A stretch of 64,000 nt of DNA from Escherichia coli (GTDB taxonomy: Bacteria > Pseudomonadota > Gammaproteobacteria > Enterobacterales > Enterobacteriaceae): assembly GCF_003019035.1 (NCBI RefSeq), contig NZ_CP027447.1, one strand, 5' to 3'. The position numbers and the translations under genes are program-made. The notes beneath the pieces were generated by a model. It did not search any database and was not told the origin of the DNA. It worked only from the letters and a program-made list of their open reading frames with translations. Positions 1 to 43,280 of this stretch are shown here, piece after piece. Within the stretch, counting starts at the first letter, position 1. The number at the start of each line of letters is the position of its first letter.

Positions 1-564
1 ACGCCATCCTGTGCCAGCGTTCTTGAATGTCTTACTGAACTGGCGTTTGAGCTGGGAATGAATGACGCACCACGCCGTAAAGGGCCGCTCTCCCGCGCCC
101 TGCGACGTCGCCTTGAAGGTACACAGGGGCTGGTTATCATCGACGAAGCTGATCATCTTGGTGCCGAAGTTCTGGAAGAACTCCGCCTGTTACAGGAATC
201 AACCCGTATTGGCCTTGTGCTGATGGGAAATCACCGGGTTTATTCAAATATGACGGGGGGTAACAGAACGGTTGAATTTGCCCGTCTGTTTTCCCGTATT
301 GCAAAGCGCACTGCAATTAATAAAACCAAAAAAGCCGATGTAAAAGCTATTGCGGATGCCTGGCAGATTAACGGCGAAAAAGAACTGGAGTTATTACAGC
401 AGATTGCGCAGAAACCAGGTGCGCTTCGCATTCTGAATCATTCACTTCGCCTTGCCGCCATGACGGCTCACGGTAAAGGTGAGCGTGTTAACGCAGATTA
501 TCTGCGTCAGGCTTTCCGTGAATTAGACCTGGACGTTGATATTTCAACGCTGCTGCGTAATTAA
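1..564 (+). CDS. B: DNA transposition protein B (MuB ATPase), C-terminal part; 5' end off-window
   Basis: Frame is open from position 1; translation (LVIIDEADHLGAEVLEELRLL...) recognised as the MuB C-terminus. Confidence 0.85.
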   Translation, partial: TPSCASVLECLTELAFELGMNDAPRRKGPLSRALRRRLEGTQGLVIIDEADHLGAEVLEELRLLQESTRIGLVLMGNHRVYSNMTGGNRTVEFARLFSRIAKRTAINKTKKADVKAIADAWQINGEKELELLQQIAQKPGALRILNHSLRLAAMTAHGKGERVNADYLRQAFRELDLDVDISTLLRN

Positions 565-579
565 GAAGGAGAAGAAATT

Positions 580-807
580 ATGATGGCCCGAAATATAAAA
601 ATGGCAACGGATGCGCAGAACTGGTTACAGGCGCGCGGGAGTCATGTAAATGAATCATATCTCGGCGTGGCGCGTCCGATTCTTGAAATCACTTACCCAC
701 CGGTGGAACTGGTAAAAAACGCGGTCAGAATTATGGAGCATAAGTCCGGGGTGGCCCGTTCTGTATGGACGGCCCGTCTTAATGGTTGCCAGATTATCTG
801 GAGATAA
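580..807 (+). CDS. kil: Small early protein at the Mu kil position
   Basis: 75-aa ORF immediately after B, with an upstream AAGGAG ribosome-binding site; assignment by position only. Confidence 0.5.
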
Positions 808-809
808 CG

Positions 810-1040
810 ATGTGTATTAAAGCCGAAAAATATATTGAATGGGTTAAACACTGTCAGTGCCACGGGGTGCCGCTGACGACATATAAATGCCCCGGATGTG
901 GTGAACAGATTATGACGCAATGCTCACCCGAAAAGGAAATTCGGGATTCCCTGACATGTTGTCCGTGGTGCAGCGCGGTTTTCTTTAAGCAGGTAAAAGG
1001 CGCGAAGGTAAAAGCCAGCGCAGTTATTCAGAATCAATAA
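810..1040 (+). CDS. Cys-rich small early protein (zinc-ribbon-like CxC/CPGC/CCPWC motifs)
   Basis: ATG at 810 preceded by GGAG and coupled to the upstream stop; cysteine pairs in the translation. Confidence 0.5.
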   Translation: MCIKAEKYIEWVKHCQCHGVPLTTYKCPGCGEQIMTQCSPEKEIRDSLTCCPWCSAVFFKQVKGAKVKASAVIQNQ

Positions 1041-1051
1041 GGAGAAACAAA

Positions 1052-1321
1052 ATGGCAAAGGTTATCTTTGAGTTTACATGGCTGGAAAGTAGTGACGGTT
1101 GCAATGGGCGCAGAGAAGTTCTGGATGCAAAAGCATGTCTTGCAGATATCTCGCCAACGGAAAATACCGGGCCTCATGATTTACTGGCAAATATCGTCCT
1201 GACTATGGCTCCTGAAATTATTAAAAAGGCCAAAGATGAGATGCTGACCACTATGAAGAAAGTGGGTATGGAGGCTGAATGTGATTTAGTACCACATCCG
1301 GTGAATGCGGTTAAACATTAA
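1052..1321 (+). CDS. Hypothetical early (semi-essential region) protein
   Basis: 89-aa ORF with upstream AAGGAG; tightly packed same-strand early operon. Confidence 0.5.
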   Translation: MAKVIFEFTWLESSDGCNGRREVLDAKACLADISPTENTGPHDLLANIVLTMAPEIIKKAKDEMLTTMKKVGMEAECDLVPHPVNAVKH

Positions 1322-1341
1322 TTCGCAAAGGAGCGCTGACA

Positions 1342-1761
1342 ATGAACGTCAAAATCCGAAATGAAATTCAGGCATTAATCCGAATTCAGGAACGCAATAA
1401 CAACGGTGGTGAATTACGCGAGTTTATTTGCGCCCGGAAAGTTGATGGTTGTGGTGAAAAGACTTACCTGATTGCTTTCGACCATTACAGCATCTGTGCG
1501 CGTTATTGCGGCGAAAGCATATCCCGCGCCATTGCATTTGGCGGTGCGTTCAACGTGGATTTATGGGAGTACGTCATGGACCGGGAATACATCTGCGCAT
1601 CAGACCCTGAAGCCCGTGAAATGTGGCAGCGTATCTGGCGCGATTACCGGTTAATGGCAAAAGGCTGGGCGCGCTGCTGTTATTCCTCGCTTGCCCTGAA
1701 AGCGGTTCAGTTATCGCTACGGCATATTCCGGCATCACTGCGCGAGCCTCTGCTGTACTGA
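1342..1761 (+). CDS. Hypothetical early protein, Cys-rich
   Basis: 139-aa ORF with upstream AAGGAG. Confidence 0.5.
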   Translation: MNVKIRNEIQALIRIQERNNNGGELREFICARKVDGCGEKTYLIAFDHYSICARYCGESISRAIAFGGAFNVDLWEYVMDREYICASDPEAREMWQRIWRDYRLMAKGWARCCYSSLALKAVQLSLRHIPASLREPLLY

Positions 1762-2061
1762 ATGGTGACTGACATGAAGTGTAATCGTAAGCGCTGGTCA
1801 CGCGAAGACCGGGAATTTATCGAAGCCAACGTCGGAAAAATGACCGTTGAAGAAATGGCGGAAAAACTGAAAGTCGCCACAACCGCCCTCCGGGCACATG
1901 CCAGAAGGCACGGAATATCATTGTGTGTATACCGAATCAGTGAACACGACAAATATTTATGTCGTGAACTTTATAAAGAAGGACTGGATATTCATGTCAT
2001 TGCCCGAAAGATGGAATTAAGCAATCGAGCTGTATCCAGCATTGTATACAGCGGATATTAA
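1762..2061 (+). CDS. Hypothetical early protein, possible helix-turn-helix
   Basis: 99-aa ORF; start overlaps the upstream stop (ATGA-type coupling). Confidence 0.45.
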   Translation: MVTDMKCNRKRWSREDREFIEANVGKMTVEEMAEKLKVATTALRAHARRHGISLCVYRISEHDKYLCRELYKEGLDIHVIARKMELSNRAVSSIVYSGY

Positions 2062-2080
2062 TTAACAGGAGCTTTAATTT

Positions 2081-2605
2081 ATGGCTAAACCAGCAAAACG
2101 TATCAAAAGTGCCGCAGCGGCTTATGTGCCACAAAACCGCGATGCGGTGATTACCGATATTAAACGCATCGGGGATTTACAGCGCGAAGCATCACGTCTG
2201 GAAACGGAAATGAATGATGCCATCGCGGAAATTACGGAGAAATTTGCAGCCCGGATTGCACCGATTAAAACCGATATTGAAACCCTTTCAAAAGGTGTTC
2301 AGGGATGGTGTGAAGCGAACCGCGACGAACTGACAAACGGCGGCAAAGTGAAGACGGCGAATCTTGTCACCGGTGATGTATCGTGGCGGGTCCGTCCACC
2401 ATCAGTAAGTATTCGTGGTATGGATGCAGTGATGGAAACGCTGGAGCGTCTTGGCCTGCAACGCTTTATTCGCACGAAGCAGGAAATCAACAAGGAAGCG
2501 ATTTTACTAGAACCGAAAGCGGTCGCAGGTGTTGCCGGAATTACAGTTAAATCGGGAATTGAAGATTTTTCCATTATTCCGTTTGAACAGGAAGCCGGTA
2601 TTTAA
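2081..2605 (+). CDS. gam: Gam host-nuclease inhibitor / DNA end-binding protein
   Basis: 174-aa translation recognised as Mu Gam; position after the early ORF block matches Mu. Confidence 0.85.
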   Translation: MAKPAKRIKSAAAAYVPQNRDAVITDIKRIGDLQREASRLETEMNDAIAEITEKFAARIAPIKTDIETLSKGVQGWCEANRDELTNGGKVKTANLVTGDVSWRVRPPSVSIRGMDAVMETLERLGLQRFIRTKQEINKEAILLEPKAVAGVAGITVKSGIEDFSIIPFEQEAGI

Positions 2606-2703
2606 TACCACCATTAATATTTAATTAATTCACATTCTTTTAATTATGGCGCGATGCGTCAGGGGATTGCTCGCGCCTGAAACAGATTACTGAGGAATAA
2701 AAC

Positions 2704-3234
2704 ATGGTTGATGCAAAAATTCTGAATGGTGTCAGCACATTATTACGGGCTTACGGACGCCTGACCTGCGGAGTTCTGGCTGAAAAAATGAAGATGCCTC
2801 CCTCATCAATGGTGTATTTCCTGCGTGATGCGGTTGATGTCGGCGTTCTCACCGAATGCAACGGATTTTATGACGTTCCGCGCCCGCGTCCGACGCCGCC
2901 TGTAAGACGAAACGCAACTGAGCAGCCTGCTGTTGATGATGCGGTGTGGTGCAACTGGCGTCGCTCATTACCCTGGGTGGAAGGTAATACCATCCCCGCA
3001 CTGGCAAAAGAGTTTGCGACAGGCGTACTGACCTGTGAGTCCGTTCACATCGTTGCAGAAGTGGATGACGAGATGTGCAAACAGGGAATGCCACGTTTTG
3101 TGATGGCTTATATCGATATCCGGCTGGGGCGGTTTATTTGCAGTTCAAGCGCCTGGAATATCACCGACCATGTACTGCGTTATCTCATTCTTGATTGTTC
3201 TCCGGCTCCCGTAGCGGTGCAGGAGGTGGCGTGA
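2704..3234 (+). CDS. Hypothetical early protein
   Basis: 176-aa ORF, first of four coupled ORFs between gam and gemA. Confidence 0.5.
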   Translation: MVDAKILNGVSTLLRAYGRLTCGVLAEKMKMPPSSMVYFLRDAVDVGVLTECNGFYDVPRPRPTPPVRRNATEQPAVDDAVWCNWRRSLPWVEGNTIPALAKEFATGVLTCESVHIVAEVDDEMCKQGMPRFVMAYIDIRLGRFICSSSAWNITDHVLRYLILDCSPAPVAVQEVA

Positions 3235-3758
3235 TGTTTTTTAAAACGTCAAATCCCGCAGCACTGCTGGCGTGGGACCAGTTTATGGCGGACTGTCTGA
3301 AACTACGCGAAGAAGCCCGCCATCTTGATAAGGTTCTGGGTTGTGGTTGCCGGTCAGTATTCAGCACAGGTATTGGTGGGCGTTATTTTCATGGTGTGAA
3401 CTTTCCGGGGAATGAGCGCCCTTTCTCGCGGGAGCTGTGGACCGTACAACGGCCCGCATCAGGTAACAGTTGCAGGCCTAGAACTTCGCGGATACCTGTT
3501 CATCTCAGGGAGCAGGCAAAAGAGCTGGCGAAAATATGGCAGGAGAATATTCCGGTCACTTATGCCCGCACAGATGCTCTTTTACCCGCACTGGGACTGG
3601 ATTTCAGCGCAACAATATTCGGGCCGCTCCGGTGGTTCCGTGTTGGTGATGTGATTTACGTCATGACGGGGATGACACCCGCACAGGGCTGCATGACGGA
3701 AATCCTGTCCGATGAATTCATGAAGGCAAAGATTGCGTTAAAGGGGGCCGCTAAATGA
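3234..3758 (+). CDS. Hypothetical early protein
   Basis: ATG at 3234 overlaps the upstream stop (GTGATG); the six-frame ORF at 3195 is rejected as an upstream extension. Confidence 0.5.
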   Translation: MFFKTSNPAALLAWDQFMADCLKLREEARHLDKVLGCGCRSVFSTGIGGRYFHGVNFPGNERPFSRELWTVQRPASGNSCRPRTSRIPVHLREQAKELAKIWQENIPVTYARTDALLPALGLDFSATIFGPLRWFRVGDVIYVMTGMTPAQGCMTEILSDEFMKAKIALKGAAK

Positions 3759-4423
3759 AAGAACGTGGCGTTGCTTTTAATGACGATATGGTCAGGGCAA
3801 TTCTCGAAGGAAGAAAGACGCAAACACGCCGCCCGGTAAAAAATGTCGGACACGATAACTGTCTGGTTATCCATCGTAACGGTGTTTATACCCACGTTAT
3901 GGATGCACCTGAGCATGGTTTATGCCCGTTCGGTAACGTTGGTGATCGCATCTGGGTCCGTGAAGCGTGGGCAATATTAGGCAATGAGGATGGTTGCAGT
4001 GTGGACTGGAACGGCAACCTTTGTCATGGCGATGAGAAGAAGGCAGCAAGGATTTATCGGGCAAGTTGTGAACAAAAGCCTGGTGATTACGGTCTGTGGT
4101 CAATACCTGATGATGCTGACTGGAAACCTCGCACTGTGAATGAAAAGTTTGATGGCAGGTGGTGCCCATCTATCCACATGCCGCGCTGGGCGTCGCGCAT
4201 TCTGTTGGGAATAACCGACGTGCGTGTGGAACGGCTGCATGATATTAGCGAGGCAGATGCGAAAGCGGAAGGCGCATTTCCGGCGACGTACAAAATTACG
4301 CCACCGGAAGCTGTTTATCGCGTTGGTTTTGGTGATATCTGGCGCGGTATTTATGGGCAAGATAACTGGCTGTCTAATCCGTGGGTATGGGTAATTGAGT
4401 TTAAGCGTATTCAGGAAGCATAA
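3755..4423 (+). CDS. Early protein with N-terminal ASCH-like (PUA-fold) motif
   Basis: 222 aa; N-terminal motif MVRAILEGRKTQTRRP resembles the ASCH GxKTxTxR signature (compare E. coli YqfB); start overlaps upstream stop. Confidence 0.55.
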   Translation: MKERGVAFNDDMVRAILEGRKTQTRRPVKNVGHDNCLVIHRNGVYTHVMDAPEHGLCPFGNVGDRIWVREAWAILGNEDGCSVDWNGNLCHGDEKKAARIYRASCEQKPGDYGLWSIPDDADWKPRTVNEKFDGRWCPSIHMPRWASRILLGITDVRVERLHDISEADAKAEGAFPATYKITPPEAVYRVGFGDIWRGIYGQDNWLSNPWVWVIEFKRIQEA

Positions 4424-4425
4424 CT

Positions 4426-4767
4426 ATGAGCAAATCACTTAATGCACGTTGTATTCGCCGTTGGGAAGTCAGATTTAAGCCTGTTTGTGATTCAAAAGTT
4501 AGCCCTCACATGCGTAAAAGCTTTTTGCGTGGGGTGCGTGAATTAGGGCTTATTACGGCTGAAAACATGGTTGAAAGCATGGCTGAGAAAAACGCCAGGT
4601 TTGATTACGACGGCAAGGACACAGGCTGGTCACCGGAGTTTTCTAACTGGTATGCAACATGCCGAGAAAAGTATTGTAAAGAGGCCCGCGACTATCTGGA
4701 TGAAGAAGTCACAAACGATGAGATCGATGAAGAAATCAGAACTGAGCTAGAGTATTGGAATGACTAA
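4426..4767 (+). CDS. Hypothetical early protein with acidic C-terminus
   Basis: 113-aa ORF, coupled to neighbours. Confidence 0.5.
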   Translation: MSKSLNARCIRRWEVRFKPVCDSKVSPHMRKSFLRGVRELGLITAENMVESMAEKNARFDYDGKDTGWSPEFSNWYATCREKYCKEARDYLDEEVTNDEIDEEIRTELEYWND

Positions 4768-5392
4768 TCTGGCCGATATGACCGGAAAGTGTTTCAGCGA
4801 TACAAGCGGTGTGGTAGCACCGCTTTTTAAAGGTATGATCATGAGTCGCACATCCCTGATTAAATTAATCCATGTCGCCCGTCGTGATCTACAACTCGAC
4901 GACGATACTTACCGCGCTTTTCTGATGCAGAAAACGGGCAAAATCAGTTGCCGCGAGCTGACGGTAACGCAACTGGAACAGGTGCTCGATGCCATGAAAG
5001 AACGCGGCTTTAAGAAGCTGAATAAACATCCACGTCGCCGCTTTAAGGGGCATGTCACGCCCCGCGAGAAGGTATACAAAGTCTGGCAGCAGATGGCAGA
5101 AGACGGTTTTATTACCGATGGCGGTGATGTGGCGCTGGATAAATATGTTCAGCGCCTGACGGCGAAACGTAATGGCGGACAGGGTGTTTCCACGCTGGCG
5201 TGGTGTCATGGCGACACCCTGTTGATTGTTCTCGAAACTCTCAAGCAGTGGCATATCCGCTGTATTCGTGAAGCCTTTTCCCGTCACGGGCTTCCGTTGC
5301 CGGTCAGTCCGTCCGGGCGTGAACTGCGCGGCTATGATGCCATGACGGCGGCTTATGCCCATGCCAGAAAGACACGGAGGATGGCACAATGA
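4760..5392 (+). CDS. gemA: GemA-like early protein
   Basis: Position immediately upstream of mor as in Mu; true start may be the internal ATG at 4841 (MSRTSLIKL...). Confidence 0.65.
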   Translation: MTNLADMTGKCFSDTSGVVAPLFKGMIMSRTSLIKLIHVARRDLQLDDDTYRAFLMQKTGKISCRELTVTQLEQVLDAMKERGFKKLNKHPRRRFKGHVTPREKVYKVWQQMAEDGFITDGGDVALDKYVQRLTAKRNGGQGVSTLAWCHGDTLLIVLETLKQWHIRCIREAFSRHGLPLPVSPSGRELRGYDAMTAAYAHARKTRRMAQ

Positions 5393-33330: not shown

Positions 33331-33407
33331 TGTTTCATTTGAAGCGCGAAAGCTAAAGTTTTCGCATTTATCGTGAAACGCTTTCGCGTTTTTCGTGCGC
33401 CGCTTCA
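33331..33407 (+). repeat. Mu right-end terminal sequence with MuA transposase binding sites (attR)
   Basis: TGTTTCATTTGAAGCGCGAAAG and TTTTCGCATTTATCGTGAAACG repeats; terminus ...CGTGCGCCGCTTCA. Confidence 0.85.
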
Positions 33408-33719: not shown

Positions 33720-34301
33720 TTAACTGGCGTGCTGTGTGCCAGGGGATATAAAACAGGTGAATTGATCAGCGAGTAGTGGGTAACTCGCTGCCTGGGGTAA
33801 TTCGAAGTGCCACCATTCGCTCGGGATACCGACAAAGCCACCGCCAGTCATAATCGCATTCAGCAACAGCCGATTGCGCTGAGCGGCTGGCGGGACGGAA
33901 GGGTGATAAGCATGGGAACGTTCGTGCATTTCATCGAACTCTGCACCCATATCCAGTATGTTCCCGTGCTCATCACGAAGCGTCAGGTCGATCGCTGTGC
34001 CACGGCTGTGATTAGAACCGACCGCCACATCAACAACATATTGCGGGTCTGGGCAGGCTTGCCACAACATCGCCTGTGCTTGTTGTGGGCGATACGCATC
34101 GTAAATCACCAGTTGTAAGCCTGACAGCTGGGCGATACTGATACTTTTCGCCAGCGCAGTAATCGCATCCTTGTGTAACAGACAACGCGCTTGCTGATAA
34201 ATAGCTTTGCCTGTGATGTTATCAGCACAGGCGTATTTCAATTCGATCTCCAGATCAGGGAAGATCACGGCTAAATCAACCAGTTCGGTGGTATCCGACA
34301 T
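33720..34301 (-). CDS. ddpX: D-Ala-D-Ala dipeptidase
   Basis: 193 aa, VanX-like. Confidence 0.9.
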   Translation of the reverse strand: MSDTTELVDLAVIFPDLEIELKYACADNITGKAIYQQARCLLHKDAITALAKSISIAQLSGLQLVIYDAYRPQQAQAMLWQACPDPQYVVDVAVGSNHSRGTAIDLTLRDEHGNILDMGAEFDEMHERSHAYHPSVPPAAQRNRLLLNAIMTGGGFVGIPSEWWHFELPQAASYPLLADQFTCFISPGTQHAS

Positions 34302-34558
34302 AAACGGTTCCTGTATAAGACAAAAATTGCTGCGCTTTCCGCTTATGCAGATCTCATGCCACGCCGGGATAAGCGCCAGAATGCTGGCTTAAAGTTATAT
34401 TTTTTAACTTTTGATCAACATTTGTGCATCGTAATGCAGTTTTGGTGCAAGAGGGGAAGTTAAGGAAGGAATCTCCCGGAATCGTAGCTGAAATCACAGT
34501 ATTTAAGTGACAGTGTCACGTTAAAGGAAAACCCGCGAGTGCGGGCGAGAGGAATTTG

Positions 34559-36958
34559 TCAGATTTTCAGCGGTAACACGCTGCTCATCCAGCCTGGAAT
34601 TTCTTCGGCGGGCAGGGGGCGGGAAAAGAAATATCCCTGAATAACGCGACAGTGGATCTTGCGTAGCATCTCAAATTGCTCTTTGGTTTCGACGCCTTCC
34701 GCCACGACGGTTAAATTAAGGCTTTGCCCAATGCTGGTAATGGCTTCAAGTAAGGCAAGGATGCGTTTTTCGGTCAGACAACGATCGACAAAACTTTTGT
34801 CAATTTTGATTTCCGTTACTGGAAGACTGACTAAGCGGGATAATCCGGAAAAGCCCGTGCCAAAATCATCTACCGATAAACCCACGCCCATATCGCGCAG
34901 GATCTGAATGCGTTTAAAGATTTCGGTATCGTGTTCCATCATCATGCTTTCCGTGATTTCCACCGTCAGCTGGTGGCCGTTAATACCCCAGGCTTGCATT
35001 GCATCAGACACCTGATTAGGCAGCTGATTACTGCGAAAGTGCAGCGCCGACAAGTTCACGGATAACGCCGGGATATGAATATTCTGGCTACGCCATTCTG
35101 CTAACTGACGGCAAGCTTCCGCGATGACCCAGCGTCCAATATTTTCGATTTCACCGATCTCTTCTGCGAGAGGAATAAACCGTGAAGGGGGCACATGACC
35201 ATGCAGGGGATCGTGCCAGCGAGCAAGGGCTTCGATGCCGTACAGTTCACCCGTTTCTGCGAAGATTTGTGGCTGGTAAACCAGTTTCAGTTGGTTATTG
35301 CTAATTGCTTCTTTCAGCGCCGCGCCTAAAACCAAACGCTCTTTTACCATTTCGTTCATCGCCGGGCTGAAGAACTGCCAGCCGTTACCGCCATTTTTGC
35401 GAATAAAATCCATTGCATTGTGAGCAGTGGAGAGCAGGTAATCGCGGTTTTTACCCACGTCGTAGCTGATGCCAATGCTCAAGGTGAGCGGGAATGGTTT
35501 ATCGTCAATCATTATCGGCTTGCTGACCACATTCCGTAGCTCATCGGCGATCTGCGTAATGTTACTGACGTCGTTTTCCAGGCTCACGAGGACAAACTGC
35601 GTACCTTCGATACGACAGAGATATTGATCCGGTTTGAGTTTTTCACGAAAGCGATTGACCACTTCCAGCAATGCCTGATCGGCCCACGCATAGCCAAGGC
35701 TATCAATCACATCCTGAATATGGTCAACACCGATGAGATACACCACCGGAGAGACGGCTTTGTCGACCAGGTCATCGAGGTAATTGTGCAGGTTATTGCG
35801 ATTTGGCAGACCGGTCATCGGATCAAATTGGATGAGTTGTTCAATATGCTGACGGCTTTTTTCCTGTTCCAGCGCCAGCGCGGCCATATGCTGGCTAATA
35901 TCTGCCACGCGTTCGATAAAGGCGCTGGTTTCTGCTCCTGACGAGGTTTTAATTTGCAGGATCCCCGCCGGCGCACCATCACGCTGACGAATGGTCGCTG
36001 ACCAGCTTTGCGCATTTTGAACTTCTGCACCGTGCGAAGATGACGCCCAGTGTATCGGCATCCCGTTGCGCAGCGCGAACAGCGAAACATGCGATTCGTT
36101 GAGTACAGATTCGATGTTACGACAAATGATTTCCCCCATTTCATGAAATGGCGGGCTGCTGCACATGGCGGCGAGAATATTGCCTTCAAGCTGGCGGATT
36201 TGCCGTTCTTCGGTGATATCCGAGAAGGTCATTACCAGGTTCTGCAGATGCGCGAGCACGTCATAAACCGGGCTGATAGAGGCTTTAATCCAGATTTTTT
36301 CACCGGTGCGCGTCAACAGCAGAAATTCATCCTGATCGCGGGCGGTTTTCCATAGCAACTGTTGTAAACGAATGCGGTTATCGGCAGGGAATTCAGGAAT
36401 GTTCAGGAGTGTATCGGGCTGCATACCGCTGGCTTCGCTAATGCAGTAACCAAACATTTCGGTAAATGCGCGATTGCACTGCACAATATGGCGTTCCGGA
36501 TCGAGGACAATCACCGGTCGGTCGAGATGGTCAACAGCAATAATCAATTGTCGGGTCTGTTCTTTTTGCGCCATTTCTACGCTGGCATCCCGTACCAGCG
36601 CCAGGTAATAAACTTTCCCCTCGGCGCTCACTTTCGATAGCGCAAAACGGGTCCAGATTTTACTGCCGTCTTTTTTCTCCAGCTGCAGCTCCCGACTCAT
36701 CCCCTCGACGCGCGCTTTACCGCCTTCACGGTTATGACGAATGTATTCAGGATGCGCAGGACGCAAATCCCGCGGAATCAGCATATCAATGTTATTGCCA
36801 ATGACTTCTTCACGTTTGTACCCCCAGAGCTTCTCTGCGGCGGGGTTGAAAAACATCACTTCATCATTTTCGTTAATTAACACCGCGCCCATCATATTTT
36901 GCTCAAGGGCGGGGAAAAAAATGCCATCGGCGGCATTATCCGCATCGGTTAGCTTCAT
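34559..36958 (-). CDS. dosP: Oxygen-sensing c-di-GMP phosphodiesterase (haem-PAS, GGDEF, EAL)
   Basis: 799 aa from MKLTDADN...; EAL-domain signature in the C-terminal part. Confidence 0.9.
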   Translation of the reverse strand: MKLTDADNAADGIFFPALEQNMMGAVLINENDEVMFFNPAAEKLWGYKREEVIGNNIDMLIPRDLRPAHPEYIRHNREGGKARVEGMSRELQLEKKDGSKIWTRFALSKVSAEGKVYYLALVRDASVEMAQKEQTRQLIIAVDHLDRPVIVLDPERHIVQCNRAFTEMFGYCISEASGMQPDTLLNIPEFPADNRIRLQQLLWKTARDQDEFLLLTRTGEKIWIKASISPVYDVLAHLQNLVMTFSDITEERQIRQLEGNILAAMCSSPPFHEMGEIICRNIESVLNESHVSLFALRNGMPIHWASSSHGAEVQNAQSWSATIRQRDGAPAGILQIKTSSGAETSAFIERVADISQHMAALALEQEKSRQHIEQLIQFDPMTGLPNRNNLHNYLDDLVDKAVSPVVYLIGVDHIQDVIDSLGYAWADQALLEVVNRFREKLKPDQYLCRIEGTQFVLVSLENDVSNITQIADELRNVVSKPIMIDDKPFPLTLSIGISYDVGKNRDYLLSTAHNAMDFIRKNGGNGWQFFSPAMNEMVKERLVLGAALKEAISNNQLKLVYQPQIFAETGELYGIEALARWHDPLHGHVPPSRFIPLAEEIGEIENIGRWVIAEACRQLAEWRSQNIHIPALSVNLSALHFRSNQLPNQVSDAMQAWGINGHQLTVEITESMMMEHDTEIFKRIQILRDMGVGLSVDDFGTGFSGLSRLVSLPVTEIKIDKSFVDRCLTEKRILALLEAITSIGQSLNLTVVAEGVETKEQFEMLRKIHCRVIQGYFFSRPLPAEEIPGWMSSVLPLKI

Positions 36959-36982
36959 AATTACCTCTGCATCCTGACGCAT

Positions 36983-38365
36983 CTAAAGACTGGCTTTCCA
37001 GAGTTCAACACGGTTTCTACCTCGTCTTTTGGCGATATACAGAGCTTCATCGGCTATTTGAATGAGGCGCTCATAGTCAGGATGACCATTAAACATGGCG
37101 GCACCGATGGAAAGTGAGAGGGCAATATCTTCGCCGTTTGCGGCTTTCAGTTTGGTTTTCTCCACCCGACTGCGAATACGTTCTGCGGTACGTAACGTTT
37201 CGTTTTCCGAAGCTTCAGTCAAAACAATGATAAATTCATCGCCCCCGTAGCGGAAAACATAATCACTACTGCGGACGTTGTCATAAAAGGCCTGAGAGAC
37301 TTTACGCAGAATTTCATCGCCAGTGTTATGGCCCCACGTATCGTTAATCTCTTTGAATTTATCAACGTCAATAATCAGCACTGACAGCGGTGTACCGGTC
37401 CGGTTGGCATGGGCAATTTCGCGTTTGAAGATCGTCGGCAGGAAACGGCGGTTAAGTAATTTCGTCAGTACATCCATACCGACTTCGTGGCGCGATACTT
37501 CTTCAAACAATTCACGCAACAAGGTAATAATTTGCGATACGGTATTTCTTATCTGTAATAAAAATTTCACCCGTAAACTTCTGTTATTCAAATTCCTGGT
37601 GTTACGCATGGTTTGATTGAAAATACCGTCGAAATCCTGAATCAGACGGGAGATATGGCCCACTTCGGCTATGCCGCTAAAATAATGTCGACCTTTATGG
37701 TTAAACCACAGGCCAAAATCAGCCTGGCTTAAAGGCAAACTACTGCCTAAATCAGAATCCAGCAGGACTTTATAGATAATATCTATTTCCCATGAAAGTA
37801 TTGAGGCTATTTGCCGTTCTTTTTCTTCTTCGGCGTTTTCCAGTAACGAGAAGATACGATAGTTTTCATCTTCCTTTGAGGCACTACTGTCACTAAAGGT
37901 AAACGCGCGGGTCATCACCTCCATAGCGATATCAATACTGTTAATAGAGAAATGGTAGACCTGAAGTTTTTCTGCGGCGGAATAATCCGAAGAGAAGATT
38001 ACCGGATAGAGGATTTTTTTCAGCACCCGAAACCCCATCTCGACAATTTCTACCGGAATTCCTATGCGGGCATGCACTTCCGCGACGGTATGCTGGATTT
38101 GTATTAGCCTTTCGACATCGTCAACCTGGGCAGAAAGCACGTTAATAATCCAGCGTTCCATCGCACTTTTCAACTGCCGCTCAACTTGTTCATTACTCAA
38201 GAATTCTTCGGCATGCGGGTCGATGCGGACAATTCGATAAAACTCAATACTCAGATAATGAGCATGCGCAACGGCAATTTCCGCGGCTTTAGCACGAATG
38301 AGCGGATCTGCTTGTTCGACAAGCCCGGTCCACTCATCTTTCATTCTTTTAAAATACATCTCCAT
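36983..38365 (-). CDS. dosC: Oxygen-sensing diguanylate cyclase (globin-coupled sensor)
   Basis: 460 aa; GGDEF motif (RYGGDEF). Confidence 0.9.
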   Translation of the reverse strand: MEMYFKRMKDEWTGLVEQADPLIRAKAAEIAVAHAHYLSIEFYRIVRIDPHAEEFLSNEQVERQLKSAMERWIINVLSAQVDDVERLIQIQHTVAEVHARIGIPVEIVEMGFRVLKKILYPVIFSSDYSAAEKLQVYHFSINSIDIAMEVMTRAFTFSDSSASKEDENYRIFSLLENAEEEKERQIASILSWEIDIIYKVLLDSDLGSSLPLSQADFGLWFNHKGRHYFSGIAEVGHISRLIQDFDGIFNQTMRNTRNLNNRSLRVKFLLQIRNTVSQIITLLRELFEEVSRHEVGMDVLTKLLNRRFLPTIFKREIAHANRTGTPLSVLIIDVDKFKEINDTWGHNTGDEILRKVSQAFYDNVRSSDYVFRYGGDEFIIVLTEASENETLRTAERIRSRVEKTKLKAANGEDIALSLSIGAAMFNGHPDYERLIQIADEALYIAKRRGRNRVELWKASL

Positions 38366-38738
38366 AATTCACACCCTTATAAGGCTGGGAAAGCAGACGG
38401 AATCAAAACGAAACGCAACGTGCGAGATCGACTAACTGCACCATACTCTCCTGAAATATGAAGATATACTGAAAACAAATAAGCGACTTAGGACAGTTTC
38501 AATCTACGCTACTGTTCTTCAGAAGAGTATAGCCCATCGTAATTATTTTTCGGTGACAGCGAATATCGTATGTTTTTTCATGTTCATACTTTTTTTAGGG
38601 GATTTATGACTGTTTAACTAAGTGTGGTTAATTGCGTAGTTAATTTGACTTAAGTAAGCATGATTACTAGTGGGATATTTCAAGAGGGTAACAAGCCGGG
38701 GGGAAAGCACCGGCTTGTTACAAAGTAAGAATGGGAGT

Positions 38739-40058
38739 TTAACTGCCCCAACGACTTTGCAGATAGCTGACCGCTTGTTGAGTCTGTGGCTTATTCAGAT
38801 AGTCCTCACGGAACAAGATTGTGCCGCTAATTTCTGGCACGGCATCGTTAAGATCGAGCTGCTTTTTCAGTTCCGGTACGCCGCCGTTAATCATCCAGTC
38901 TGGCTCTATCTTTGAAGGTTCTCCTACTTTATAGAAGGCGATACCGATATACAGGCGGGTCCTGGTCGGTTTAACGACATCCGCCCACCATTTTGCCAAC
39001 ACGTCATAACGCGCGGCACTCCGTGAGAACGGCCAGTAAATTTGGGGAGCAATGTAATCCAGCAACCCTTGTTCCACCCATCGACGGGTATCAGCGTAGG
39101 ATTCGTCATAGGCTGCCGCGCCTCGGGTATCGGAACCGAGCGGATCGTGTGATCGGTTACGCCACACGCCTGCCGGGCTAACGCCAAATTCGACTTCCGG
39201 CTTAATGCTTTTAATGGTGTGCGATACCTTCGCAATTAACTGCTGAGTATTGTTGCGCCGCCAGTCTGCTTTTGACGCAAATGCGCCGCCGTATTTGCGG
39301 TACGTTTCATTATCATTTAGCCGTGAAGCTGGCGACTCAGTATAGAAATAGTCGTCAAACTGCACGCCATCTACCGGATAGCGGGAAACCACTTCCACAA
39401 CTATTGATGTGATCCAGTCCTGAACCTCAGGTATGCCCGGGTCGAGGACAAAGCGATCGCCGGACGTTCTGATCCAGTCGCGGTGTTGCACATAGACGCT
39501 CGCCGGTTGTTGAGACAGGGTGCTATTCAGTTCCCTGATAGTACCGGGCTTCGTATTAACCGATACGCGATAGGGGTTAAACCATGCGTGTACTTTCATC
39601 CCACGCTTGTGGGCTTCGTCGAGCATAAATTGCAGCGGATCGTAACCCGGATTTTCACCAATCTTACCGGTCATAAGATCGGACCACGGCAAAATTTTCG
39701 ATGGCCACAGGGCGGTACCATCCGGCTTGACCTGGAAAAAGACCGTGTTTATGCCGAGACGTTGCAGATGATCCAGTTTGTCGATCATCGCCTGTTGTTG
39801 TACACGTGCCCGGCTGGCGGGGTTACTAATGTTAACCGAGGATACCGGTGGCCAGTCGAGGCGAGACACCGTGGCCAGCCAGATGCCACGCATCGGTTGT
39901 GACGATTGTTGCGTCGTGGCTGGTGGCTTTGAACCCGCTGGTGGTGTCACCATGGACTCTGGAGGCGTGCTTTTACAACTACACAGTAAAAGTGCCAGTG
40001 CAACCAGTATCGCTGGTCTTCTAATCGCTAATTTCTCGTTTCGGGAGCAGATATCCAT
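38739..40058 (-). CDS. yddW: Lipoprotein glycoside hydrolase YddW
   Basis: 439 aa; lipoprotein signal ...LLCSCK. Confidence 0.85.
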   Translation of the reverse strand: MDICSRNEKLAIRRPAILVALALLLCSCKSTPPESMVTPPAGSKPPATTQQSSQPMRGIWLATVSRLDWPPVSSVNISNPASRARVQQQAMIDKLDHLQRLGINTVFFQVKPDGTALWPSKILPWSDLMTGKIGENPGYDPLQFMLDEAHKRGMKVHAWFNPYRVSVNTKPGTIRELNSTLSQQPASVYVQHRDWIRTSGDRFVLDPGIPEVQDWITSIVVEVVSRYPVDGVQFDDYFYTESPASRLNDNETYRKYGGAFASKADWRRNNTQQLIAKVSHTIKSIKPEVEFGVSPAGVWRNRSHDPLGSDTRGAAAYDESYADTRRWVEQGLLDYIAPQIYWPFSRSAARYDVLAKWWADVVKPTRTRLYIGIAFYKVGEPSKIEPDWMINGGVPELKKQLDLNDAVPEISGTILFREDYLNKPQTQQAVSYLQSRWGS

Positions 40059-40188
40059 ATGTGCTGGTTTCCGGTAAACAGATGTGCGCTCATTCTCGTA
40101 CTTATCCCGGTTAAGTCAATACGACAGCAAGCACGAAAAAGGGAGCGATGAATTATCGCTCCCTTATCTTATAACCATTCAGACATGG

Positions 40189-41724
40189 TTAGTGTTTCTT
40201 GTCATTCATCACAATATAGTGTGGTGAACGTGCACGCGGGTGCAGGAAGAAGTGACCTTTTGGTGCGTTCTGACTGTTGATTGGCTCCAGAGTAACGCCG
40301 GTATTCCCTTTGCCTTTACGATCATGAACAGCATAGAGAATAAAGGGCAGGGCAAGTACCACCAGGAAACTCACGACCAGTAATTCAACATACATATCAG
40401 TAGAGTCACCCTGGATGTTATCCGGCGGCAGGAAGGAAACAATAAACGCCATAATTGAAGTCAGCAGACCGACAATAGCCACGACCAGTTTCACCCCTTT
40501 ACCACCAGGGATATTAAATGTGCGTTTTAAGTCAGGATGTTTGAGAACCAACACAATGTAGCCAATAAACAGCATGAAATAAGCACACAGATAAATCACC
40601 ACCGTCAGCGCCAGTGCGATCAGGAAGGACATGTTGTTACCGCCACCGGTATTGGTGAGGATGATCAACGCGATAGAAGTAATCACCAGCTGCGAAATGA
40701 CCAGCGTTACCGGTACGCCATTTTTGTTCATTTTAGCGAATGCTGCTGGCAGCAGGTTTTTCTGCGCTGTGACATACATCCCGCGAGAAGGACCAACAAT
40801 CCAGGAAGCGATTTCCGCCAGAACACCCAGCAACAGCAGTGCGGAGATCACGCGAACCGTCCACTCAATTTCCGGTGCCACATGTGACATCAGAACGGTA
40901 AAGGTTTGCATTACCCCTGCGGAGAGGTTGATTTCATTACCCGGAATGACCATCGCAATAGACAAACCGCCAACAGAGCTTAAGCAGATTGCCGCCACCA
41001 TCAGTAGTAACATAGCCAGTGGATAGTCGCGCCCGGGGTTGCTCATTTCATTGACGTGGGTTGCGGAAGCTTCAACGCCCATATAACTCAAAATGAAGGC
41101 AACAAATACAACCAGAGTGCCCACTTTAGAGAAGTCAGGGAAGAAGGTCTTCGCATCCATTTCGATAGCAACGGGGGCACCGGAGTGCAGATAAATAGCC
41201 GCTAATGCGATCAAAATAAATGCAGGTAACAGGATACCGGCGAAGAAGCCAACTTTAGCAATTCGCGCCGTGTATTTCGTGCCACCAAACTGCGTTAATG
41301 CCAGCGCCCAAAGAATGATGAGTGCTGCAATAGTTTTGGTAATGGGGTCTTCATTCAGAGCTGGCCATTTCAGGATGTAGGAGAGTGCCCCTAACACGAA
41401 ATAGAGCATCGGAATAAAACCAATGGCGATTTGCAGATAGCCAAATGAGATCGCTGCAAATCCCCATCTCGGCCCCAGAGTATTTGATACCCAGGCGAAG
41501 ACGCCACCTTCTTCCCAGCCGTCGACGGTAGCCATTTCCGCAGCACAAAGTCCCACGGGAATAAACCATAAAATCCCGCCTAATAGCAGGAAGAAGACTA
41601 ATGAAAAGCCCGATGTTGCGAAGGTAGGGTATTCATAAACAGCCATTACCATCGATGCCGTTATGGCAAAGAATCCGAGTAATGTGAGCTGCTTAGCTTT
41701 ACCTGTCTGTACTGATGTAGCCAT
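40189..41724 (-). CDS. gadC: Glutamate:GABA antiporter
   Basis: 511 aa, multi-pass transporter; directly downstream of gadB. Confidence 0.9.
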
Positions 41725-41879
41725 ATTATCCCCCTAAAACGGTATTCCTGTCGGAACCGCACCTGTTTTGTTCTGAAGCGTATTCAGAACAATATTTTCC
41801 GTTGCTAATGCCAGTGAACAGACTTTGGAAATTGTCCCGAAACGGCTTCGTTTCGGGACACCGTTACCGTTAAACGTTA

Positions 41880-43280
41880 TCAGGTGTGTTTAAAGCCGTT
41901 CTGCTGGGCAATACCCTGCAGTTTCGGGTGGTCGCTGAGATATTTCAGGGAGGCTTTGTAGTCTTCCAGCAACAGTTCAGCAAAGTCCATTTCGAAGCCG
42001 CGACGACACATAATGCGCATCACCACGATGTCGGTGGCTTCACCGCCGAGAGTGAAGGCCGGAACCTGCCAGCCGCGCAGACGCAGACGTTCAGAGAGGT
42101 CGTACAGGGTGTATCCCGGATCTTCACCATCTTTCAGTTTGAAGCAAACCGCCGGGATGCCTTCGTCCGGGCGACCGGTACAGATGAACTCATACGGCCC
42201 CAGTTTGGCGATTTCATCCGCCAGATAAGCGGCAACCTGGTAGGAAGCGTTCTGTACTTTGGTATAGCCTTCACGACCGAGGCGCAGGAATTCATAGTAC
42301 TGTGCAATCACCTGACCCGCCGGGCGGGAGAAGTTGATGGCGAAAGTACCAATCTGACCGCCGAGGTAGTCAACGTTGAACACCAGTTCCTGCGGCAGCG
42401 CTTCTTCATCACGCCAGATAACCCAGCCGCAGCCCAGCGGAGCCAGACCGAATTTATGGCCTGAAGCACTGATCGATTTCACACGCGGCAGGCGGAAGTC
42501 CCAGACGATATCCGGAGCGACGAACGGTGCCAGGAAGCCACCGCTGGCAGCGTCGATGTGCATGTCGATGTCGATACCGGTGTCGGCCTGGAATTTATCC
42601 AGCGCATCGTGCAGCGGCTGCGGGAACTCATAGTTACCGGTATAGGTCACGCCGAAAGTCGGCACCACGCCGATGGTATTTTCGTCGCAGGCTTCAATCA
42701 TGCGTTTCGGGTCCATAAACAACTGACCGGGGCGCATAGGGATCTCACGCAACTCCACATCCCAGTAGCGGGCGAATTTATGCCAGCAGATTTGTACCGG
42801 ACCGCACACCAGGTTTGGTTTATCCGTTGGCTTACCTGCAGCTTCCATACGCTTGCGCCAACGCCATTTCATCGCCATCCCGCCAAGCATACAGGCCTCG
42901 GAAGAACCAATGGTGTTGGTGCCAACGGCCTGACCATTTTTCGGTGCAGGCGCATGCCACAGATCGGCAACCATGTTTACGCAACGCAGGTCGATGGCTG
43001 CGGATTGCGGATATTCTTCTTTGTCGATCCAGTTTTTGTTAATGGATAAATCCATCAACTTGTGGACGTTTTCGTCGTCCCAGGTCTGGCAGAAAGTGGC
43101 CAGGTTCTGACGAGCGTTGCCATCAAGATATAATTCGTCATTGATAATCTGAAATGCGACATCGTCGCGCATTTCGTGCAGCGGAAAACGTTTTGATTCT
43201 GCGATAGTGGAAATAGACTTTGCACCAAAACGTGAATCGAGTAGTTCCGACCTTAAATCCGTTACTTGCTTCTTATCCAT
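41880..43280 (-). CDS. gadB: Glutamate decarboxylase beta
   Basis: 466 aa from [21 protein letters not shown]...; the six-frame ORF has a 23-codon upstream extension. Confidence 0.9.

Follow-up and report, generated by a model that had tools for sequence, protein, structure and literature searches.

To be semi-essential, the early region of phage Mu would have to be dispensable for plaque formation and yet affect growth or host viability. When it is deleted, host viability after infection with MuBam recovers (PMC3325207), and most of its ORFs have no assigned function (PMC3325207, PMC3820752). Two of its genes are already known to act on the host: Mu kil kills the host and cells become spherical (Waggoner 1989, as cited in PMC3961180), and Mu E6 encodes Gnarl2, which shifts the O-antigen ladder downwards and renders wild E. 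coli sensitive to T5 (PMC12373910; Silas et al., bioRxiv 2023 and Nat Commun 2025). Mu gp6, gp7 and gp8 were each expressed individually in a published 200-gene accessory-gene library, the main text of which names gp7 as a positive and makes no mention of gp6 (orf137) or gp8 (orf119).

We analysed a 64,000-nucleotide stretch of Escherichia coli DNA (hereafter the window) that carries a closely similar block. The original prediction had singled out five tightly packed ORFs between B and gam and matched them to the Mu semi-essential region, adding that the genetically defined functions there had not all been mapped to ORFs and that early small proteins of this kind are often inhibitors of host proteins. 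Our data agree on the layout (one strand, 75–139 aa, gaps of 0–20 nt) and on the match, the block being the beginning of that region and collinear with Mu (97.8% of nucleotides identical); the remarks on unassigned functions and host targets accord with the Mu literature cited above. The block is very probably the kil-E5-E6-E7-E8 start of the semi-essential early (Pe) region of a Mu-family transposable prophage (Table 1). Since Mu gp6, gp7 and gp8 have already been screened singly, part of the experiment proposed with the prediction, expression of each ORF by itself, has been done.

Table 1 Genes of the block and its two boundaries, with positions in the window.
Feature	Position	Strand	Remarks
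B 3' part (transposition gene)	1..564	+	Upstream boundary; Pfam Phage-MuB_C 3.7e-34, AAA_22
kil (Mup05)	583..807	+	74 aa; 75 aa from an alternative ATG at 580
gp6/E5 (Mup06)	810..1040	+	76 aa
gp7/E6-slot gene	1052..1321	+	89 aa; "window-type" allele
gp8/E7 (Mup08)	1342..1761	+	139 aa
gp9/E8 (Mup09)	1774..2061	+	95 aa; 99 aa from 1762
gam (Mup10), host nuclease inhibitor	2081..2605	+	Downstream boundary; Pfam Phage_Mu_Gam 4.1e-42

At the protein level Kil, gp6, gp9 and Gam match Mu at every residue (100% identity) and B is 99% identical to Mu B; gp8 is 96% identical to its Mu counterpart, with five substitutions that include Y37C. The exact sequences of all five proteins are already in public databases, 88 E. 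coli genomes carry the block, and the five genes have long been catalogued in Mu; the observation is genuine, though ordinary and already known. The Mu Kil family carries the identifiers phrog_2743 and PF26843, and the window protein belongs to it by sequence match (phrog_2743 at 1.3e-42; exact sequence of UniProt KIL_BPMU). The identity of the first ORF as kil, a named gene, and the difference between the allele in the E6 slot and that of Mu had both been missed. The right end of the prophage lies at 33386–33407 and is followed by flanking E. coli DNA; in SCU-301, an E. coli genome with a 100%-identical flank, the prophage was not found at the extrapolated position. A literature search by protein accession returned no match, and literature on "arm" and "cim" was uninformative.

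The gaps among the five ORFs are 2, 11, 20 and 0–12 nt, and each start is preceded at 5–9 nt by a Shine-Dalgarno sequence of AAGGAG or GGAG type as read from the sequence (AAGGAG at 566–571 for kil). For gp9 the start at 1774 is the more likely, as it agrees with diverged homologues and with the revised Mu annotation. Given Mu biology and this tight packing with ribosome-binding sites, we infer that, on infection or induction, transcription from Pe would run through A and B into the block. A scan for promoter-like and terminator-like sites found no excess over shuffled sequence, the entire window held no Rfam family at gathering score, and PADLOC defence-system models gave no match. Sequence searches against the PDB returned nothing significant for Kil, gp6, gp8 or gp9 (best match for gp9, 2lvs).

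The window gp7 allele is the sole lead to come from the block. Window gp7 and Mu gp7 (NP_050611) gave no BLASTP alignment and fall into different families (phrog_2230 and phrog_10252, respectively). The window protein recurs in Mu_3F6 at 100% identity and in PhiR68_1 and the Yersinia phages vB_YpM_5/6 at 99%. A true homologue of it is the D108 allele (YP_003335755), also 89 aa long, which aligns at 40% identity (E = 7e-14) and has the SP...GPHD and PEII.KA motifs in common with it; dN between the two is 0.52 and dS 1.24, compared with a dS of 0.03–0.08 in the flanking genes. Divergence of the DNA runs from about codon 6 of gp7 to its stop codon between near-identical flanks, and the alleles sort into three groups (Mu/Gnarl2-type, window-type and D108-type) that share at most 38% identity past residue 9. 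These patterns mark the gp7 slot as home to three ancient, deeply diverged alleles exchanged by recombination.

How window gp7 relates to Gnarl2 bears directly on its likely activity. The two occupy the same slot between gp6/kil and gp8 in the same early-operon context, are of similar length (89 vs 87 aa), and share both the N-terminus MAKVI[IF]E[IF] (the first 8 residues) and a C-terminal His. Window gp7 could accordingly be a true homologue of Gnarl2 that has diverged strongly in sequence but modifies the O-antigen or LPS in the same way, changing susceptibility to other phages, and we regard this as possible though rather doubtful. In its favour, Mu gp7 cross-matches phrog_2230 weakly (E = 0.009), both proteins would appear, judged by eye, to run strand-strand-long helix-strand, and hhalign assigned the full-length profiles a probability of 80%. 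When the first 9 residues were removed, however, the hhalign probability fell to 0.7% and the score to 13.0, within the range of a null built from column shuffles (10.1 +/- 2.1, maximum 18.7). Loss of the signal after this trim identifies the full-length result as an artefact of the conserved N-terminal flank, and we rejected it as evidence of homology. BLASTP likewise finds no relationship, identity between allele groups is 12–24%, and the window-type allele is absent from the published library. Beyond the shared N-terminus homology is not detectable, and by these comparisons window gp7 is a positional counterpart of Gnarl2 and not a demonstrable homologue.

Since only position supports a transfer of function from Gnarl2, the suggestion that the gp7-slot protein may, like Mu Gnarl2, have its effect on the cell envelope or LPS is a weak one. 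More tentatively still than the homology just discussed, the slot may hold a balanced polymorphism, in which at least three ancient alleles that cannot be aligned with one another are shuffled among near-identical Mu backbones, each tuned to a different target in the host envelope or in O-antigen biosynthesis. Window gp7 would in that case be a new small protein that modifies LPS, or some other surface barrier, with a specificity of its own.

Comparison with related loci divides the block into two parts. The order B-kil-(gp6)-gp7-gp8-gp9-gam is kept in 26 IMG/VR contigs, and 31 more diverged Mu-like loci have the arrangement B-(gp8-like)-kil-(0 or one 85-aa gene)-gp9. Both kil and gp9 were found in every related locus covering their region, and in all those covering the upstream region kil follows B, either directly or with one small ORF between. 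In diverged Mu-like phages kil adjoins gp9 (in one example kil ends at 2489 and gp9 starts at 2492), and in some others the two ORFs overlap. The genes between them behave differently: gp6 is missing as a clean indel from about half of related phages, with a 33-nt spacer in its place, and its presence is independent of the gp7 allele group, while gp8 in distant relatives is either missing or located upstream of kil. The conserved core of the block consists of kil and gp9; the three genes that separate them, gp6, gp7 and gp8, make up an accessory island whose members vary independently.

The second core gene encodes a putative DNA-binding protein. Window gp9 matches phrog_323, "transcriptional regulator, D5-like" (5e-29), and homologues 45–55% identical to it adjoin kil in the 31 diverged Mu-like contigs. 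Its AF2 model (pLDDT 80.1) has two three-helix bundles (helices 10–19, 25–32 and 36–45, then 57–68, 73–79 and 84–93). The top PDB fold matches were all helix-turn-helix (HTH) DNA binders, namely the Tc3 bipartite DNA-binding domain, Cbp2, and the HTH domains of IstA and resolvase, with a best E-value of 0.09 and none at E <= 0.001. Seven BFVD fold matches reached E <= 1e-3, mostly to uncharacterised proteins, and all Pfam HTH matches were below gathering score. The model suggests that gp9 is a tandem (bipartite) HTH protein that would bind DNA as a small regulator.

A conserved lethal gene next to a putative HTH gene recalls higBA, in which the gene for a small toxin precedes that for an HTH antidote or autoregulator. 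We consider it very unlikely that kil and gp9 are such a toxin-antitoxin-like pair, and equally unlikely, as part of the same idea, that the accessory genes were inserted later between them. The two genes abut in diverged Mu-like phages and occur together in every related locus covering the region, Kil is lethal according to the source cited above, and gp9, modelled as HTH, has a very weak HigA-type match (E = 0.02). Yet that match is the nearest approach to an antitoxin family, with no significant hit in PADLOC or NCBIfam, and the co-occurrence is explained equally well if kil and gp9 are merely core early genes. Furthermore, Mu expressing the whole region still kills its host, and deletion of the region restores viability, which argues that gp9 does not neutralise Kil in the native context. 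Reading kil and gp9 as a conserved core around an accessory island narrows the questions posed by the block to what gp9 binds and whether the alternative gp7 alleles share Gnarl2 activity or differ from it in specificity.

The original prediction also held that two of the ORFs carry CxxC-type cysteine pairs and resemble zinc ribbons; this stands for gp6 and fails for gp8. The cysteines of gp6 form CPGC (C27, C30) and CPWC (C51, C54) pairs with 20 residues between them, and among 8 homologues C27, C51 and C54 are invariant and C30 is kept in 7. These data make gp6 a credible predicted 4-Cys zinc ribbon, which would bind a host protein or nucleic acid. Its matches to the FmdB and ECs_2282 zinc ribbons are weak, and it scored below every curated zinc-ribbon cut-off (18 bits vs 31.3 for TIGR02605, 16.8 vs 37 for NF047912 and 15 vs 24.5 for Zn_ribbon_ACC). 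It constitutes a narrow family of its own (phrog_3786; PF26833 by Pfam matches precomputed on homologues). Other Mu-like phages encode a 54-aa zinc ribbon in the gap between B and kil, which is unrelated to gp6; homology between the two was rejected at an hhalign probability of 15%.

The reading that makes zinc-ribbon metalloproteins of gp6 and gp8 alike, the two Cys-rich ORFs, is highly improbable because of the pattern of cysteine conservation in gp8. This protein does have 7 Cys in 139 residues (C30, C37, C52, C56, C85, C111 and C112), and the stretch H48-x3-C52-x3-C56 is invariant in its close family. However, it is without any CxxC, the spacings being only C-x6-C and C-x3-C; C52 and C56 are the only invariant cysteines in the close family, and the other five (C30, C37, C85, C111 and C112) differ from one close homologue to another, Mu itself having Tyr at position 37. 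When 1.84 billion cluster representatives were searched with a gp8 profile, one full-length gp8 cluster was recovered and, as distant homologues, P0043 and P0044, neither of which keeps any of the gp8 cysteines or H48; a frameshifted gp8 copy (P0024) was left out of the comparison. There was no match to a zinc-ribbon family in Pfam, NCBIfam or PHROGs, and the structure model of gp8 is of low confidence, with no recognisable fold or family. By its cysteines, then, gp8 is not a zinc ribbon. With a 4-Cys site already contradicted, the residual possibility would be a His/Cys2 site in the close family. The correction removes gp8 as a target for zinc-protein work; it would most likely function as a binder of a host protein.

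Against diverged relatives, dN/dS was 0.06–0.14 for kil, 0.12–0.35 for gp6, 0.12–0.23 for gp8 and 0.14–0.27 for gp9, with Gam at about 0.10, values that identify the five ORFs as real genes under purifying selection and not chance ORFs. The opposite view, that some of them are chance ORFs or decaying, functionless remnants, might draw on their RefSeq labels ("hypothetical protein" only), on the dispensability of gp6 in many phages and on frameshifted copies in public data such as P0024, but is scarcely credible, being already contradicted by these dN/dS values, which place purifying selection on all ORFs at a level comparable to gam, and facing also a ribosome-binding site at each ORF and a gene order kept across dozens of independent contigs.

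Beyond Mu itself, three of the proteins invite comparison with characterised systems. With its two CxxC knuckles spaced by about 20 residues and a length of about 76 aa, gp6 resembles the small 4-Cys zinc ribbons, with weak matches to FmdB/CxxC_CxxC_SSSS (TIGR02605), the ECs_2282 family and archaeal Zn-ribbon RNA-binding proteins. The two modelled HTH bundles of gp9, with a linker about 10 residues long between them, recall those of Tc3 transposase (1u78), the CRISPR-repeat-binding protein Cbp2 (2lvs) and the N-terminal HTH of IstA. In contrast to these, gp9 would be a stand-alone protein of 95 aa without a catalytic domain, and the PDB E-values of the likeness are not significant.

Mu Kil shares with Lambda Kil, Rac KilR and T7 Gp0.4 the general character of a small early phage protein that is lethal to the host and alters its morphology. 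Those three are FtsZ inhibitors and have no sequence similarity to Mu Kil, and, unlike them, Mu Kil produces spherical cells and not filaments, as described in PMC3961180. Death with spherical cells, taken from the same account, points to a block of cell elongation rather than to FtsZ. Because the phenotype is one of spheres and not filaments, the PHROG label "septation inhibition" for the Mu Kil family is probably a misnomer. As a whole, the block has the same gene order and the same position between B and gam as the Mu semi-essential region (NC_000929, AF083977, M64097), from which it differs in the five gp8 substitutions and in the other allele that fills the gp7 slot.

The five ORFs packed on one strand between B and gam are, on sequence grounds, real genes, and the block they form is collinear with the kil–E8 annotation of phage Mu; the original reading of it as the Mu semi-essential region is correct. 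Gene names follow three Mu records that carry the same ORFs (kil, E5/gp6, E6/gp7, E7/gp8 and E8/gp9). Successive genes are separated by 2, 11, 20 and 0–12 nt, and a ribosome-binding site of the AAGGAG or GGAG type precedes all five starts. Promoter-like and terminator-like sites were no more frequent in the block than in shuffled sequence, and no Rfam family matched. Compared with relatives sharing 68–92% protein identity, dN/dS was 0.06–0.14 for kil, 0.12–0.35 for gp6, 0.12–0.23 for gp8 and 0.14–0.27 for gp9 (~0.10 for Gam). ORFs of 75–81 aa also overlap the block on the minus strand (693–920, 1574–1801 and 1707–1952), and similar antisense ORFs were entered as "putative" (F-86, D-75) in a 1991 Mu record (M64097); those of the block are most likely chance ORFs, because the plus-strand frames are under strong purifying selection.

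Table. Genes of the block, its boundaries and the downstream replacement genes (window positions).
Feature	Position	Strand or role	Length	Basis
B, 3' end		upstream boundary of block		Pfam Phage-MuB_C, 3.7e-34
kil (Mup05)	580/583–807	same strand as other four		Mu annotation
gp6/E5	810–1040	same strand as other four		Mu annotation
gp7/E6 slot	1052–1321	same strand as other four		Mu annotation
gp8/E7	1342–1761	same strand as other four		Mu annotation
gp9/E8	1762/1774–2061	same strand as other four		Mu annotation
gam		downstream boundary of block		Phage_Mu_Gam, 4.1e-42
Replacement gene 1	3755–4423		222 aa	phrog_874
Replacement gene 2	4426–4767		113 aa	phrog_6675

The block is already known. It occurs in 88 of 5,426 complete E. 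coli genomes (best match among complete RefSeq genomes, 99.3%), and all five exact proteins are in public collections, some on at least 1,000 contigs. Kil, gp6, gp9 and Gam match their Mu counterparts exactly (100% identity), and gp8 carries 5 substitutions in 139 residues (Y37C among them). RefSeq labels the products "hypothetical protein", with "Kil protein family" in one of 12 rows among the matches listed.

Gene order was conserved across 26 IMG/VR contigs found via gp8. Homologues of gp9 with 45–55% identity occur in 31 viral contigs from more diverged Mu-like phages, where the order is B, sometimes a gp8-like gene, kil, either no gene or one 85-aa gene (phrog_1518, "host nuclease inhibitor"), gp9 and gam. 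The conserved core is therefore kil and gp9, which often abut. In the Mu/D108 lineage, three genes (gp6, gp7 and gp8) lie between them, each varying independently: gp6 is missing from about half of related phages, which have a clean 33-nt spacer instead, and its presence is independent of gp7 allele group, and in two distant contigs gp8-like genes lie 5' of kil, their stop codons overlapping its start. At these two Mu-like loci (L033, 1754–2324; L034, 554–1107), the gp8 homologues are 113 and 105 aa long, have none of the Cys conserved and directly follow B, and the overlap with kil is 11 nt in L033 (14 nt if the ORF-list start is used) and 4 nt in L034; the two genes may be translationally coupled in such phages. 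The most likely working model is that the block would act as an early-operon host-takeover module, with Kil and the putative helix-turn-helix (HTH) protein gp9 as its core around a swappable accessory island of gp6 (a predicted zinc ribbon), gp7 (an allelic cassette) and gp8. Mu gp6 (orf137), gp7 (orf63) and gp8 (orf119) are all included in the 200-gene accessory-gene library of Silas et al.

For the gp7 slot, BLASTP gave no alignment between the third ORF and Mu gp7, and gp7 proteins fall into three allele groups with at most 38% mutual identity past residue 9. DNA divergence among the window, Mu and the Mu-related phage D108 begins near gp7 codon 6 and ends at the gp7 stop codon, with almost identical flanks. 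Between the window and D108, flanking genes had dS of 0.03–0.08 and dN of ~0, whereas gp7 had dS of 1.24 and dN of 0.52; by these substitution rates, the alleles are old and were exchanged by recombination, and did not arise through recent in-place divergence. Every allele is constrained, as dN/dS was 0.13–0.32 within the allele groups. The Mu allele is Gnarl2, which downshifts the O-antigen ladder and makes ECOR1 and ECOR22 T5-sensitive by 10^5 to 10^6-fold (PMC12373910). Full-length profile–profile comparison of the window/D108 family with Gnarl2 gave a probability of 80%, but this signal came wholly from the common first 9 residues: without them the score was 13.0, against 10.1 +/- 2.1 (maximum 18.7) for column shuffles. 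We therefore regard the window gp7 as a positional counterpart of Gnarl2 rather than an established homologue. The window allele, absent from the published 200-gene library, and possible differences in envelope specificity among the three allele groups make up the sole lead with some novelty.

Two Cys-rich zinc-ribbon-like proteins had been proposed in the block; the proposal holds for gp6 but not for gp8. In gp6, C27-P-G-C30 and C51-P-W-C54 are spaced by 20 residues, and across eight homologues C27, C51 and C54 are invariant and C30 is kept in seven, with other Cys positions variable. The FmdB and ECs_2282 zinc-ribbon families matched below their cut-offs, a PDB sequence search returned weak matches that included archaeal zinc-ribbon proteins, and gp6 homologues carry a precomputed Pfam assignment (PF26833). 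A zinc ribbon is thus a credible prediction for gp6. In contrast, gp8 has no CxxC motif, and C52 and C56 are the only invariant Cys in its close family; two distant homologues (P0043 and P0044), found by profile search among 1.84 billion cluster representatives, retain none of the Cys. A further 44%-identical "homologue" (P0024, 149 aa) is a frameshifted copy whose mid-section matches a +1-frame ORF at 1472–1654, and it would distort conservation analyses if included. Some diverged Mu-like phages encode a 54-aa CxxC...CxxC zinc ribbon in the B–kil gap (L078, 1636–1810; L079, 2074–2250), which was rejected as a gp6 relative (hhalign probability 15%), so small zinc ribbons recur here from independent origins. 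The 54-aa protein aligns to the N-terminal portion of phrog_26321, whose C-terminal portion matches the 85-aa "host nuclease inhibitor"-like protein of the kil–gp9 gap in the same phage group.

Positions 1–33407 of the window are Mu-family prophage, with the exact canonical Mu right end at 33386–33407 and the gadC/dosP region of the E. coli chromosome beyond. The flank at 34000–42000 (gadC, dosP, dosC and ddpX) is 100% identical to E. coli strain SCU-301, which has no prophage at the site extrapolated from it. Positions 1–3718 share 97.8% nucleotide identity with Mu (77% of the 1–4500 query covered) and 92–98% with related phages. Mu identity stops at 3718, where the E14/E15 (gp13/gp14) region is swapped for two other genes with 84–88% matches in Yersinia phages vB_YpM_41/44 and an STEC phage; the final ~10 residues of gp12 are also unlike Mu. 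The 3718–4770 interval looks like a second accessory-gene swap within the same early operon.

Mu Kil is reported to kill the host and render cells spherical (PMC3961180), which suggests that it blocks cell elongation, not FtsZ. In MuBam infection, deletion of the semi-essential region restored host viability (PMC3325207). PHROGs and RefSeq label 583–807 "Kil protein for bacterial septation inhibition", which does not fit the spherical-cell phenotype, a sign of blocked elongation rather than filamentation. Some records name the protein "Protein cim", and AF083977 equates kil with cim.

The other core protein, gp9, matched phrog_323 ("transcriptional regulator, D5-like", 5e-29). Its AF2 model (15-sequence alignment, pLDDT 80.1) consists of two three-helix bundles with a short linker between them, the second bundle (LCRELYKEGL..IA.KME.S) nearly invariant, and we read gp9 as a small bipartite-HTH protein and putative DNA binder. 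Seven viral models matched its fold at E <= 0.001; the best PDB matches, none at that level, were the bipartite DNA-binding domain of Tc3 transposase, HTH domains of IstA, resolvase and ArdK, and Cbp2, a CRISPR-repeat-binding protein.
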